Assembly: GCA_951406725.2 (NCBI GenBank)
Contig: OX597826.1
Coordinates: 17,794,001 to 17,858,000, forward strand
From: Octopus vulgaris
Taxonomy: Eukaryota
Reading direction: 5' to 3'
Length of the DNA: 64,000 nucleotides
A program made the translations under genes and the position numbers. Every line of letters starts with the position of its first letter. The stretch's first letter is position 1. Under the pieces are notes generated by a model. It worked only from the letters and a program-made list of their open reading frames with translations, did no database searches and was not told where the DNA came from. Below are positions 57,355-64,000 of this stretch, in pieces.

Positions 57355-59575
57355 AAACTAGGAGACAGGTATATCTAGCCAAAGGAGAAGCAGAAAAAAA
57401 GTTTTCCCATGTTCAGTGACTTGAGGACTAAAGATTTGAAGTGTTTCGGATTGCAAGAAACTGTGTGAGAGAAAATTGTAATGTCATAGGAGAGAAATGT
57501 GTCCACATGGATGATGGTGCACTTGCATTTAATGATTCTGCAAAGAAAGAGGCTTGGAGAAGCCATTATGAAAGACTGTTGAATGTGGAGAATGAATGGG
57601 AGAGAAGAGTCTACTAAATGGTAACCCAACTGAGGGACCAGCTATCCAAATTAACAGTAACTTGGTAGATAAAGCAATTAAGGATAAGAAGACAAGGAAA
57701 ATCCCCAGCCCATCAGGAATCACCACTGAAATGCTTAAAATATCTGGCAGTGTGTGTTATGGTCTAGTCATCTGTTTTGTAAATCAGATGGTTCACGAAG
57801 GAGTCATACCCATAGTCAACTGCTACAAAGATAAAGGTGATACCTTAGAAATAATTACAGAGGTATCAAATTGTTGGATCAGGTGATGAAAGTTATGGAG
57901 AGGGTCATAGCCCAACTAATCAAGGAGAGAGTTAGCCTAGATGAGATGCAGTTTGGTTTTGTGCCAGGGAGAAGCACCACTGATGCTATATTTCTGGTAA
58001 TTCAGCTGCATGAGAAATACATAGCCAAAGATAAACCTCTGTACTTGGCTTTTATTGACTTGGAGAAAGCCCTTGACAGAGTTACCTGATCCCTTATTTA
58101 GTAGTCAATGTAGAAACTACTAATAGACAAGTGGTTGGTGAGAGCTGTACAAGCCATTGTACAGGGATGCTACCAGTAAGGTGAGGGCTGGCAACAAGTA
58201 TAGCAAAGAATTCAGGGTACAAGTAGGGCTTCATCAAGGATTGATCCTCAGCCCCGACTTGTTCATCATAGTCCTTCAGGCAATAACAGAGAAATTTAAG
58301 ACAGGTTGCCCCTGGGAGCTCCTCTGTACTGATAACATTGTTCTTATAGCTGGATCATTACCAAAACTAAAGAAGTTCCAGGTATGGAAGCAAGGTCTAG
58401 AATCGAAGGGCCTTATTGTTAACCTAGCAAAAACCAAAGTCTTTGTAAGTAGGAAGGCAGACAAATTACAAATCCTTTCAGGCAGATGGCTCTGCTCGAT
58501 CTGTAGAAAAGGCGTAGTTAGAAACTCCATAAGATGTACCTGCTGTAAGCTTTGGACACATAAGAGGTGCAGCAATATCAGAGGAAGGTTAACAGGGAAA
58601 ATAGCTTTTGAGTTTGGCAGATACACAGGTACAATAAACACAGAAAATGTACAGAAAATAGACTCCATCAACTGCCAGGGGTTTAAGCTAGCGGTAGTAG
58701 ATTGCTTCTGTTATCTAGGTGACCAAATTAGTAGTGGAGGTGAATGCTCAGAGAGCATAGCTGTAAGAATAAGAATAGGCTGGGCAAAGTTCAGAGAGCT
58801 CCTAGCTCTGCTGGCAGCTAAAGGCCTCTCGCTCAAAGTGAAAAATTGTATGATGTCTGTGTGCTAACAGCTATGCTACACAGCAGTGAAACATAGTCTA
58901 TGACAGCTGAGGATGTGTGTAGGCTTGAAAGAAACGAAGCCAGTATGCTTTGCTGGATGTACAGTATCAGTGTGTCTGTTCAATAGAGTGTAAGCATCTT
59001 GAGAGAGAAAAGTTGGGCATAAGAGGCATCAGGTGTGGTGTGCAAGACAGATGACTGCTGCTATGGTCATGTGATGCATATGGACAAGGATAGCTGTGTA
59101 AAGATCTCTAACTGTGGGGGGAACTTGTGTCTGATGCTGGTGTCATATAACTGGCACCCGTGCTAGTGGCACACAAAGAGCACTTTTCAAGCATTGGGCC
59201 TCAAGGAGTCAAAATGGCTAATGCCGGTGGCATGTGAAAAGTTCCTTTCGAGTGTTGGGCCCTACGGAGGCAATGACAAATGACCAAGACCTTTGGCATT
59301 ATGTCCTGCTTGAGAAGACCCATCAAGCCAAGTCGAATTGCAGTCGTGGCAGATACTGATTTCATGCAAATGAAATTTGCTAGTGGCATGTGCTAGTGGC
59401 ATGTAAAAACACCCATTACTCTTTTGGAGTGGTTGGCATTAGGAAGGGCATCCAGCTGTAGAAGCCATGCCAAATCAGACACTTGGGTCTGCTACAGCTT
59501 TCCAGCTTGCTAGCACTGGTCAAACCGTCCAACTCATGCTAAGATGTGCAATGGACATTAAATGATGATGATGAT
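57355..59575 (+). mobile_element. RTE-clade LINE copy in NDUFA9 intron 7
   Basis: Same family as 38075-40615; QFGFVPGRSTTDAIF, PHD-like insert, (GAT)n tail. Confidence 0.92.
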
Positions 59576-60239
59576 TCATTGCCTAAATATACATTTGATT
59601 CATATTTGTTGGTTTGTTAAAGCAGAAACTGATGGATAAAGAGTATATTCCAAGATGATGAAGCAAAATTTTTTAAATGACTGTAGAATGAATGAATTTT
59701 AAAGATAGGAATAAGAATAATTTATTACGTTGGGCTGGATAGTTCTAAAATTTCAGACATTTCATTTACCTTTTACTTTTTTTAGTCATTTGATTGTGGC
59801 CATGCTGGGGTCACTGCCTTGAAGGGTTTTAGTTGAATGATCAACCCCAGAACTTCCTTTTTTTTTAAGCCTAGTACTTATTCTATTGGCCTCTTTTGCT
59901 GAACTGCTAAGTTATGGGGACATAAACACAAACACATACACACACACACACACACACACAAATACATATATATGAGCTTCTTTCAGTTTCCATCTACCAT
60001 ATCCACTCACAAGGCTTTGGTCAGCCTGAGGCTTTAGTAGAAGACACTTGCCCAAGGTGCCAAGTAGTGGAATTGAACCTGAACCATGTGTTTGAGAAGC
60101 AAGCTTCTTACCACAGCCACACCTGCACCTTTGCATAAATTCTTGATTCAGATCTTTGTATATAACTAAATGTGCCTTTCCTATTTGTATAAATATTGTC
60201 CTAATTATTTTCCTACATGTTTTGTCTCTCTCTTTACAG

Positions 60240-60316
60240 GTATCTGATGTAGCTGAAGGTATCATGAATGCCATAAAAGATCCAGCTTCAATTGGACAGA
60301 CCTATGAAGCCATTGG
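60240..60316 (+). CDS. NDUFA9: NDUFA9 exon 8
   Basis: VSDVAEGIMNAIKDPASIGQTYEAIG. Confidence 0.94.
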
Positions 60317-61254
60317 GTGTGTTGCTCACACTTTACATTATTATTCAAATTATTTGCCTCCTTTCTCTGCTCAGATTCTTTGTATTATATTTTGTAAATT
60401 TACCTGTAACCAGTTAGACAAATATTTTACCTTTCTGCTAAGCACTTGACTGAAGTGCAGACTAAAGCAAGCCAACAATGTCTTAACTAGGAACACACCT
60501 CAATGGTTATGGCTGAATTTTTGATCCCTTGTCCAGTATTTTAACTATCTCCCCACTTCATCATGTTTGAAATTTCTGTCTTTGACAGAAGAAAGAAATA
60601 TTCATAATTTTTTATCACAATTCCAGTATATGAACTCCGTAACATTTTCTGCACTATTGTATCACATTCTCCTCATCTTGTACATCATATCTTCTCCACT
60701 GCTATACTTCTTCCCACCACTCCTACTCCTACTACATCACATCTTCCTACCACCAATTCTGTCCTGCATCACTGAGGTGTTGTGTTCTGTTTATGTAGTT
60801 TATACTTCTAGATAAGCAAATTCTATAATATATTATAAGGACATGCAAAAGGCACCTGTACCAGTGACACAAAAAAGGGCTCCCATGCCAGTGTCATGTA
60901 AAAGACACCCAGTGCACTTTGTAAGGTGGCTGGCATTAGAAAAGGCATCCAGCCATAGAAACCAAGGGAAAACAGATGACTGGAGCCTGGTGCAGCTCTC
61001 CAGCTTACCAGCCTTGGTTAAGCTGGCTAACCCATGCCTGTATGGAAAACAGGCATTAAATGATAATGATGTTGATAAAATCTTTTTCGCAATAACCTTC
61101 AAGTCCTAAACAGATTATAAATTGAATTTCATCTTTCTTCAGGAATCATAAACCATTGCTAGATTTTGTTAAAAGATATCTTTTGGCATTCTCACTCATC
61201 AGATACTGTATCTATTTATTAATAAATTCTATTTTCACATTTTTTTCTTTTCAG

Positions 61255-62567: not shown

Positions 62568-63309
62568 TTAAAATGTATTTGTTTATTCAGTTGCTTATAG
62601 TGCTTTATTTGTGGTCAGATTCTTGTGAAAATTAGTGATAGTGTGGGAGAAAAACTTTTGATGTAAGCTATCATTTGTGTTAAAAATAAGATGCATGTGT
62701 GATTGTTCATTAATCTCATAATAATTAAAAATATTCACTAAAAATGATGATGGTGATTAATGCATTTAGTAATAGACATGGAAATACAAACAGCACAAAC
62801 AAAATTTGTTTTTTCCTGAGGTTTAGTAGATTATTCATTATTGCACCTAAAGGTAAGCTGTAACTCTTATTGAAAGCAACATACCCAGGTATGCATGGAT
62901 TTTATCATTTGTAGGAACAAAGTTGTTGGCTTCTGTTTATTCCACATATATAAATCACTTTTGTTGGGTGATAGTACTGTTGAAAACTCAATGGAAAGTC
63001 TAGAAAAAATATTCTACAAACTGTTTTATTTCTAGATCATCAGCACCTGTAAGGTGTTCAGGTAATATTTCATTGAAGTGCACTTGATATAAAAAAACAA
63101 AAAAATCAAACAAGTGAAGCATGACCATGCATGGGAAAAAAAAAAAATATATTGCTCTTGTCTGTCATTAATTCATTGATTAAACCATTGTCTAAGTTGT
63201 CTCTTGAAAATGATTAGAAGCTATTTTTTGAAAGCAAGTTTTGATTTAAAAAAAAGAAAAATGAAAAAGAACCCTTCCCCCCAATATGGTAAAATTTCAG
63301 TAATACTGA

Positions 63310-64000
63310 ATTGATGTTCATAACTTACATTTGACGGATATTAGTCCTCATCTTGTTAACACAATGTTTCGGCTGATATACCCTCCAAGCCTTCATCAGG
63401 TGTCTTGGAGAAATTTCAAACCTGGGTTCTCATTCCTAAGGTATTTTTCGATGTTGTTATTGCTGGAATTGAACTTGGAATCTTGGGGTTAGTAGCTCTT
63501 AACCACTACGCCATATGCCCATGGGCAATTATGGAGTGAATTTTAGGGCTTATAAATCTAACATTTTCCTGTCCTTCCTTAATACCAATTCCCATATGCT
63601 ACTAGTGTTCTCTATTATTTTAACTTCATCCCACAGGGGAAGTTGGTCTCCATTTTCCCATACATGATCAGCTATACCCGATTTTTCAATATCTCGTTGT
63701 GTCACAGCTTTGCAATGTTCCTCTACCCTTCTTTTGAGGGGGTGGCATGTTTCGCCTTTGTATAACCTACCACAACTGCATGGGATGGAGTATACGCAGT
63801 GTTTGATCATGTTCTCTTCTATTGGTGGTTTTACTTGAAGGCGATATTTGCGAAGAGTTGTATTACTCTTGAACACTGTCCTGATGTCCTATGGGCCACG
63901 TATCTTTTATATCTTTCCAGAGAGGCCTTTCACATAGAGTAGGCAGACTATGGACAGTTTATTGGTTTCATCCCCTCTTTTCTTCATAATTGGAGTGGAG
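63310..64000 (-). mobile_element. Penelope-like element 3' end (GIY-YIG endonuclease and pLTR)
   Basis: ORF 63550-63876: CVYSIPCSCGRLYKGETCHPLKRRVEEH...SGIADH. Confidence 0.9.
63358..63403 (-). ncRNA. Minimal type I hammerhead ribozyme in the Penelope pLTR
   Basis: acac-CTGATGA-a-ggct...agcc-GAAAC-att-gtgt on the - strand. Confidence 0.75.

Follow-up and report, generated by a model that had tools for sequence, protein, structure and literature searches.

The end of the window, as we call the whole 64,000-nucleotide stretch of Octopus vulgaris DNA analyzed here, carries on its minus strand what is best explained as the degraded 3' terminus of a Penelope-like retrotransposon present in many copies, with a pLTR that holds a family-wide tRNA-derived head, captured once and spread as a passenger, a reading to which we assign a probability of roughly 0.55. 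The head is a shared feature of the family, present in many copies, and not a one-off insertion, and the parts of the element follow each other in the order endonuclease end, head, tail, spacer, hammerhead, and element end. An earlier note on this DNA had described a GIY-YIG region, an A/B-box cassette and a hammerhead in that order on the minus strand, and all three parts lie where it had placed them. The features are as follows:

63550..64000, minus strand: decayed C-terminal part of a Penelope-like ORF (linker and GIY-YIG-type endonuclease region), reaching the window end; in-frame stops at 63909-63907 and 63891-63889, 28-codon deletion near 63610, stop codon at 63552-63550
63511..63534, minus strand: short hairpin whose 3' arm is the head's first ten bases (self-match; fold z -1.6)
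63463..63520, minus strand: tRNA-derived head; A box 63513-63503, anticodon-loop-like CTACTAA 63495-63489, B box 63474-63466
63453..63462, minus strand: (AAT)n tail remnant (loose ends at 63460-63464 in all four runs; isoleucine run in the antisense match P0101)
63405..63452, minus strand: spacer with a hairpin just 5' of helix I, the deepest-covered part of the repeat (fold, depth, P0101)
63358..63404, minus strand: minimal type I hammerhead; helix I 63404-63400 with 63362-63358 (5 bp), core CUGAUGA 63399-63393, extra A 63392, stem II 63391-63371 (4 bp), GAAA 63370-63367, predicted cut after 63363
63325..63357, minus strand: pLTR 3' extension and element end at about 63325, with A/T-rich heterogeneous flanks beyond (depth, loose ends)

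The evidence that the head belongs to the family comes from four runs mapped on positions 63101-64000 at 80% likeness, namely the DNA runs X1, X13, and X16 (organisms A, C, and E) and run X2, which is labelled "RNA?" and whose type is a guess. From the DNA runs of the three organisms, 24,082, 14,455, and 18,132 contigs were placed, and the summed depth is 4.6e4 to 5e6 inside the element vs. less than 200 in the flank. Over the head it amounts to 0.42-0.97 million in the three DNA runs, more than a thousandfold above the flank, and the ratio of this depth to that of the upstream segment 63521-63580, which includes the last 28 coding bases, is 0.95, 1.36, and 1.12. The corresponding ratio in X2 is 4.5, from contigs that cannot rank the parts of the element. 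Summed contig depth does not equal copy number, and the deletions of the window copy depress the depth over the head, so that an excess of copies starting at the head could be hidden. Coverage of the spacer and hammerhead exceeds that of the head by a factor of 2-6, so that many copies may lack the head; this excess fits 5' truncation or mapping bias.

Contiguity across the head's 5' border is seen in individual contigs. Each DNA run contains 112-127 contigs with variant letters at 63521 and 63562, at distances from the contig end that reach 42-57 letters. Record 25 of X2 represents a different copy (14 changes, 14 gaps) that aligns over its whole length at 63435-63576; it bridges the 5' end of the head by the 31-letter rule and reaches 26 letters past the stop codon. 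The linkage from endonuclease to hammerhead is built from overlapping short contigs, no complete second locus having been read. Independent testimony is provided by a search of the antisense frame against 1.84 billion proteins, which returned a single match, the Octopus bimaculoides gene model P0101, while a second antisense-frame search gave no match. The last 50 residues of P0101, read antisense, run through the first half of the hammerhead, the spacer, a poly-isoleucine stretch, the 3' end of the tRNA, the B box, and the anticodon arm, with an 83% amino acid match over window positions 63390-63461. The isoleucine run, together with the loose ends at the tail position, shows that an (AAT)n tail lies behind the head. 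P0101 is named NUP42, and its repeat-derived 50-residue end is probably a mis-predicted last exon. Thus, the supposition that the cassette is part of the element, on which the earlier note had built its proposal, is borne out by the equal depth of head and upstream segment in three DNA runs and by P0101.

The head itself is marked by an A box, TGGCGTAGTGG, at 63513 and a B box, GTTCAATTC, at 63474 of the minus strand, which form the sole A+B pair on either strand of the window; shuffled windows (n = 100) hold on average 0.45 loose and 0.0 strict pairs each, and the A- and B-box-like character described in the earlier note is confirmed. The two boxes lie at tRNA spacing, 39 nt apart in the window copy and about 45 nt apart if the 6 nt present in other copies are counted. 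The window head is without some 6 nt near 63494 and without the 3' acceptor half, both of which occur in other copies: contigs mapped on the window copy show an insertion and loose ends at 63494, and loose ends again at 63461-63464. In the window head ARAGORN calls no tRNA gene, and Rfam gives chance-level matches only, with no tRNA or hammerhead family among them. A degenerate motif built from the head has one match in the window; among contigs of viral and metagenome origin it picks out 84 loci, and ARAGORN identifies 82 of them as tRNA genes. The head is therefore tRNA-derived. The isotypes of these 82 genes, a microbial set picked by the head's own motif, are mainly Arg (59) and Asn (13), and the best pairwise score is with the Asn(GTT) group. 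One of the two motif matches without an ARAGORN call (L024, 41-91, minus strand) resembles another tRNA-derived head with the same A box.

The acceptor halves of the head are unpaired, in the family form as well, and the T stem contains mismatches. Given that pairing is lacking between the acceptor halves of the family form too, the head is not a tRNA gene, and judging by its sequence it likely no longer folds as a tRNA; for the same reason it is more probably the remnant of a promoter than a signal for processing. The majority letter at 63470 gives a consensus-type B box, and most copies are closer to the box consensus than the window copy is. The (AAT)n tail follows the tRNA-like 3' end in other copies and is mostly lost from this one, and no target-site duplication was found around head and tail in the window copy. 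On the 5' side, the short hairpin reported earlier is present at 63534-63511, but it is not significant by itself, as 13 of 200 shuffles fold equally well; it may possibly be an inverted duplication formed at insertion. At 63520-63527, a few contigs in each of the three DNA runs connect the hairpin region with parts further downstream on the other strand, and these joints are possibly the inverted ends typical of PLE insertions.

The hammerhead descriptor has one match in the window vs. 0.01 expected. Minimal hammerheads of metazoans have been characterized by a short helix I, an extra base after A9, a G10.1-C11.1 pair, and palindromic positions 15.2-16.2 (PMC4209133), and their occurrence in pLTRs is established (PMC4209133). 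The window sequence has the CUGAnGA and GAAA boxes, the extra base after A9, the G10.1-C11.1 pair, and a helix I of 5 bp, within the 4-5 bp of the minimal type. The minimal hammerhead of the earlier note is thus recognizable, but its stem III is broken in the window copy, which fails the strict test with C-A instead of C-G and non-palindromic positions 15.2-16.2. Position 16.2 (63365) is A in the window copy and G in most copies, with 83, 71, and 75% of the depth in X1, X13, and X16 and 34% in X2, and the majority letter renders stem III palindromic in all three DNA runs. The family form of the hammerhead accordingly displays the features described in PMC4209133, and most copies have both better boxes and an intact stem III. 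An exact hammerhead 21-mer has no match in metagenome, viral, or prokaryote contigs. Downstream of the hammerhead, the depth exceeds 3e5 in bin 63311-63340 and, in the DNA runs, drops below 200 in the bins of the flank, and loose ends accumulate at 63325 in all four runs with an agreement of 0.58-0.62.

Two observations concern the surroundings of the hammerhead. The hairpin adjoining helix I (63432-63410, minus strand) gains in pairing when the majority letters at 63418 and 63409 are used, and it may serve the ribozyme as a loop-1 or tertiary partner. In addition, the core CUGAUGA contains an ATG, and the short frame pieces that follow it (63399-63330, minus strand) resemble the sister-family read-through P0059 with weak E values of 0.1-0.3, as though the hammerhead contained the start of the following ORF in a tandem array. 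Neither a second hammerhead nor a second copy of the element was found in the 64-kb window, and no tandem hammerhead units were seen there.

The endonuclease region consists of a stop-to-stop frame at 63888-63550 of the minus strand (112 aa) that continues to the window end across two stops, and the alignment shows that 28 residues of P0025 and P0006 are absent from it. The GIY-YIG ORF of the earlier note is therefore present as a region and is a relic, not an intact reading frame. Homologues of the relic are numerous (62 of 63 candidates of similar length, and 38 of 58 longer ones), and the best long one is P0063, named Octopus sinensis (75%). In P0086, an RVT_1 match (E 1.7e-6, under the curated cut-off) is N-terminal to a domain 61% identical to that of the window; a reverse transcriptase and a C-terminal endonuclease are thus combined in one ORF at the family level, the reverse transcriptase of the window element itself lying beyond the window end; the element's 5' end is likewise outside the window. 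The window frame has no GIY-YIG match in Pfam, nor was one obtained in the Pfam and PDB sequence searches, and the AlphaFold model of the domain, with a pLDDT of 47, is too poor to confirm the fold. Of the CCHH motif, alignment A2 shows Y-x-I-x-C-S-C and one His as invariant. The GIY-YIG label is based on the VYSIPCSCG..YKGET motif, its position, and the link to a reverse transcriptase provided by P0086. No CX2-5CxxC linker finger, a feature of Neptune and Nematis (PMC8557442), is visible in alignment A1, and by domain and linker criteria the element would be an EN+ Penelope-like element of the Penelope/Poseidon clade. With P0025 as the query, no related locus was found in viral contigs.

Three other features of the window may be mentioned. 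An exon-like peptide at 60237-60320 (plus strand), 3 kb from the relic, matches the complex I subunit NDUFA9 (best E 1.7e-4, PDB sequences), and because of this match the Penelope relic may sit antisense in an NDUFA9 intron. At 57841-58867 (plus strand) there are decayed LINE-type reverse transcriptase frames (RVT_1 E 2.7e-6) with a Cys-rich stretch. A separate SINE-like repeat at 60120-59950 (minus strand), which ends in (TG)n and contains a B-box-like stretch, is unrelated to the cassette, short B-box matches, also found elsewhere in the window, being its sole likeness to it.

Whether the head is ancestral can be approached through a sister family 60-70% identical to this one, in which 6 of 100 homologous proteins read through the pLTR. 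In the 200 nt that precede the hammerhead, none of the six read-throughs can encode a strict A box or an extended B box; they span at most about 115 nt of the pLTR, and loose motifs are codon-compatible in five of the six. The codons of P0059 would permit a loose B box, again at a distance of 75 nt. On these coding sequences, the head was probably gained in this Penelope lineage, the lack of a head in the sister family being tentative.

The scenario that we favor, the passenger captured once, would begin with the capture of a tRNA retrocopy into the 3' region or pLTR of a founder element. That this happened through retroposition is suggested by the tail that directly follows the tRNA 3' end. 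The head would then have been amplified along with ordinary Penelope retrotransposition. Intact copies may recruit Pol III and yield an RNA of about 200 nt, from head to hammerhead, ending in flanking T runs. Since the sense strand has no run of four T from the head to the element end, Pol III could transcribe as far as the hammerhead; the absence of such runs is not beyond what composition predicts (P 0.25-0.66). We also considered that the whole element avoids Pol III terminators and rejected this idea, since the lack of T4 in 676 nt has a P of 0.25-0.42 under shuffles. Minimal PLE hammerheads were cleaved only as dimers (PMC4209133), and the hammerhead of the anole Poseidon was cleaved only with protein, cleavage being dispensable for insertion and reverse transcription starting downstream of the hammerhead (PMC11167929). 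Because a dimer or a protein is needed, a short Pol III RNA would be no simple self-cleaver of the kind that the earlier note had put forward as a possibility. In the window copy, moreover, stem III is broken and the head shortened. For its cleavage, the head-to-hammerhead RNA would require dimerization or the protein of the element, and the region in which PLE reverse transcription begins would lie within it. A dominant stand-alone SINE family does not seem to have arisen from such RNAs, and the window copy is likely dead in all three parts. A bolder version, in which a Penelope lineage captured a working Pol III promoter and its pLTR-only head-hammerhead RNA was copied back by its own enzyme, giving a SINE beside its parent and a model for the origin of Sm-alpha, is rather doubtful as things stand.

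Other explanations of the head differ in what they make of its function. The idea that it is an active Pol III promoter whose short RNA founded a stand-alone, Penelope-dependent SINE/retrozyme hybrid, the source of many copies as in Sm-alpha, draws on the near-consensus boxes of most copies, on the T4-free path to the element end, and on precedents such as Sm-alpha (PMC6765202) and the retrozymes proposed to derive from pLTRs (bioRxiv 10.64898/2026.07.22.740005). A true start at the head would also suit the step in X2 (4.5 vs. about 1 in DNA) better than a passenger does, a weak hint given that the type of this run is guessed. Against these points, none of the three DNA runs has a depth step at 63520, and among the best six positions per run there is no pile of loose ends at 63520, in contrast with the pile at 63325 in all four runs; moreover, the T4-free path is expected from composition. 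As the DNA depth has no step at the 5' end of the head, by a measure biased by the window copy's deletions, stand-alone copies of head plus hammerhead, which the earlier note had proposed to look for, are not supported as the main form, and we consider this explanation unlikely. That the head is inert, carried within the copied 3' region and not transcribed by Pol III in any copy, agrees with its unpaired acceptor halves and T-stem mismatches, with the silence of ARAGORN and Rfam on the window head, and with the sister family, whose similar hammerhead is preceded by neither a strict A box nor an extended B box in the six read-throughs, so that the head is probably dispensable. Majority letters nearer to the box consensus than those of the window copy speak against complete inertness, and so does the weak RNA hint from X2; a young capture could also explain the majority letters, and we hold this reading to be quite improbable.

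It has also to be considered that the autonomous element itself makes use of the head, which in tandem arrays would lie 115-130 nt upstream of the next ORF start and could act there as a promoter, a TFIIIC-binding insulator, or an RNase P/Z site. The broken acceptor stem speaks against cleavage by RNase P/Z, an uncapped Pol III transcript would need a T4-free passage across an ORF measured in kilobases, and the shuffle tests did not reveal T-run avoidance. This proposal finds some encouragement in the anole Poseidon, whose ORF begins in stem II of the hammerhead (PMC11167929), and in the ATG of the CUGAUGA core with its weakly similar frame pieces; on balance it is very improbable. Finally, the tail-like structure and the lack of a second copy in the window would be in keeping with a SINE fragment inserted in the window copy only, the outcome that the earlier note had named as a refutation; it is contradicted by the depth, the bridging contigs, and P0101, and is hardly tenable.

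A passenger head of this kind would bear on several questions. There is no agreed role in vivo for PLE hammerheads, and the pLTR origin of retrozymes and Sm-alpha-like elements is a proposal based on their kinship in sequence. A family of high copy number in which a tRNA-derived promoter sits between endonuclease and hammerhead offers a direct test of Pol III pLTR RNAs, of their cleavage, and of their mobilization by PLEs. If such RNAs are made by Pol III, cleave, and are mobilized by PLEs, SINE-like parasites can rely on Penelope elements as well as on LINEs. Some octopus repeats filed as tRNA SINEs or tRNA pseudogenes may be Penelope ends.

The arrangement of a tRNA head and a hammerhead in a Penelope pLTR is apparently undescribed. 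In a search that covered mainly openly accessible papers, no description of a PLE pLTR with a tRNA-derived head was found; the family may already be filed in Repbase or Dfam. The accessible portions of PMC8967140, PMC4758252, and PMC6962438 contain nothing on a link between a tRNA head and a PLE hammerhead, and the 2026 repeat annotation of O. vulgaris lists 190 Penelope-like families, the word "hammerhead" being absent from its available text (PMC13282606). With canonical EN+ Penelope/Poseidon elements (PMC4209133; PMC8557442; PMC11167929), the window family shares a reverse transcriptase followed by a C-terminal endonuclease, two core cysteines, the absence of a CX2-5CxxC linker finger, and a minimal palindromic-stem hammerhead near the 3' end. 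It differs from them by the tRNA head and (AAT)n tail between stop codon and hammerhead, of which there is no mention in the available parts of the same three sources. The tRNA-derived SINEs of molluscs (PMC4758252) resemble it in that their head, in many cases derived from tRNA-Arg, contains A and B boxes and their tail is a simple repeat, whereas the window head is embedded in a PLE and has no separate body, LINE-derived tail, or target-site duplication.

Animal non-LTR retrozymes are likewise short, pLTR-related hammerhead units thought to use PLE enzymes (PMC7229834; bioRxiv 10.64898/2026.07.22.740005). Their derivation from pLTRs is a proposal of the preprint, in the available text of which the term "tRNA" does not occur (bioRxiv 10.64898/2026.07.22.740005), and their transcription has been treated as read-through (PMC7761336; PMC7229834). 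They form tandem repeats that give rise to circular RNAs and are believed to be read through from outside promoters (PMC7761336), in contrast with the window, which has no tandem unit. The closest parallel in layout is found in schistosomes, where the high-copy repeats Sm-alpha and Sj-alpha combine a tRNA-related Pol III promoter with a type I hammerhead downstream, as is established (PMC6765202; PMC2770079). The route to SINE/retrozyme hybrids suggested in the earlier note keeps its premise, a cassette that belongs to the family, but it is less new than implied, because this layout already exists in Sm-alpha (PMC6765202). Sm-alpha has been described as a SINE-like unit that codes for no protein, is often arranged in tandem, and has canonical hammerheads, whereas the unit in the window is continuous with a Penelope endonuclease end and carries the minimal hammerhead of PLEs.
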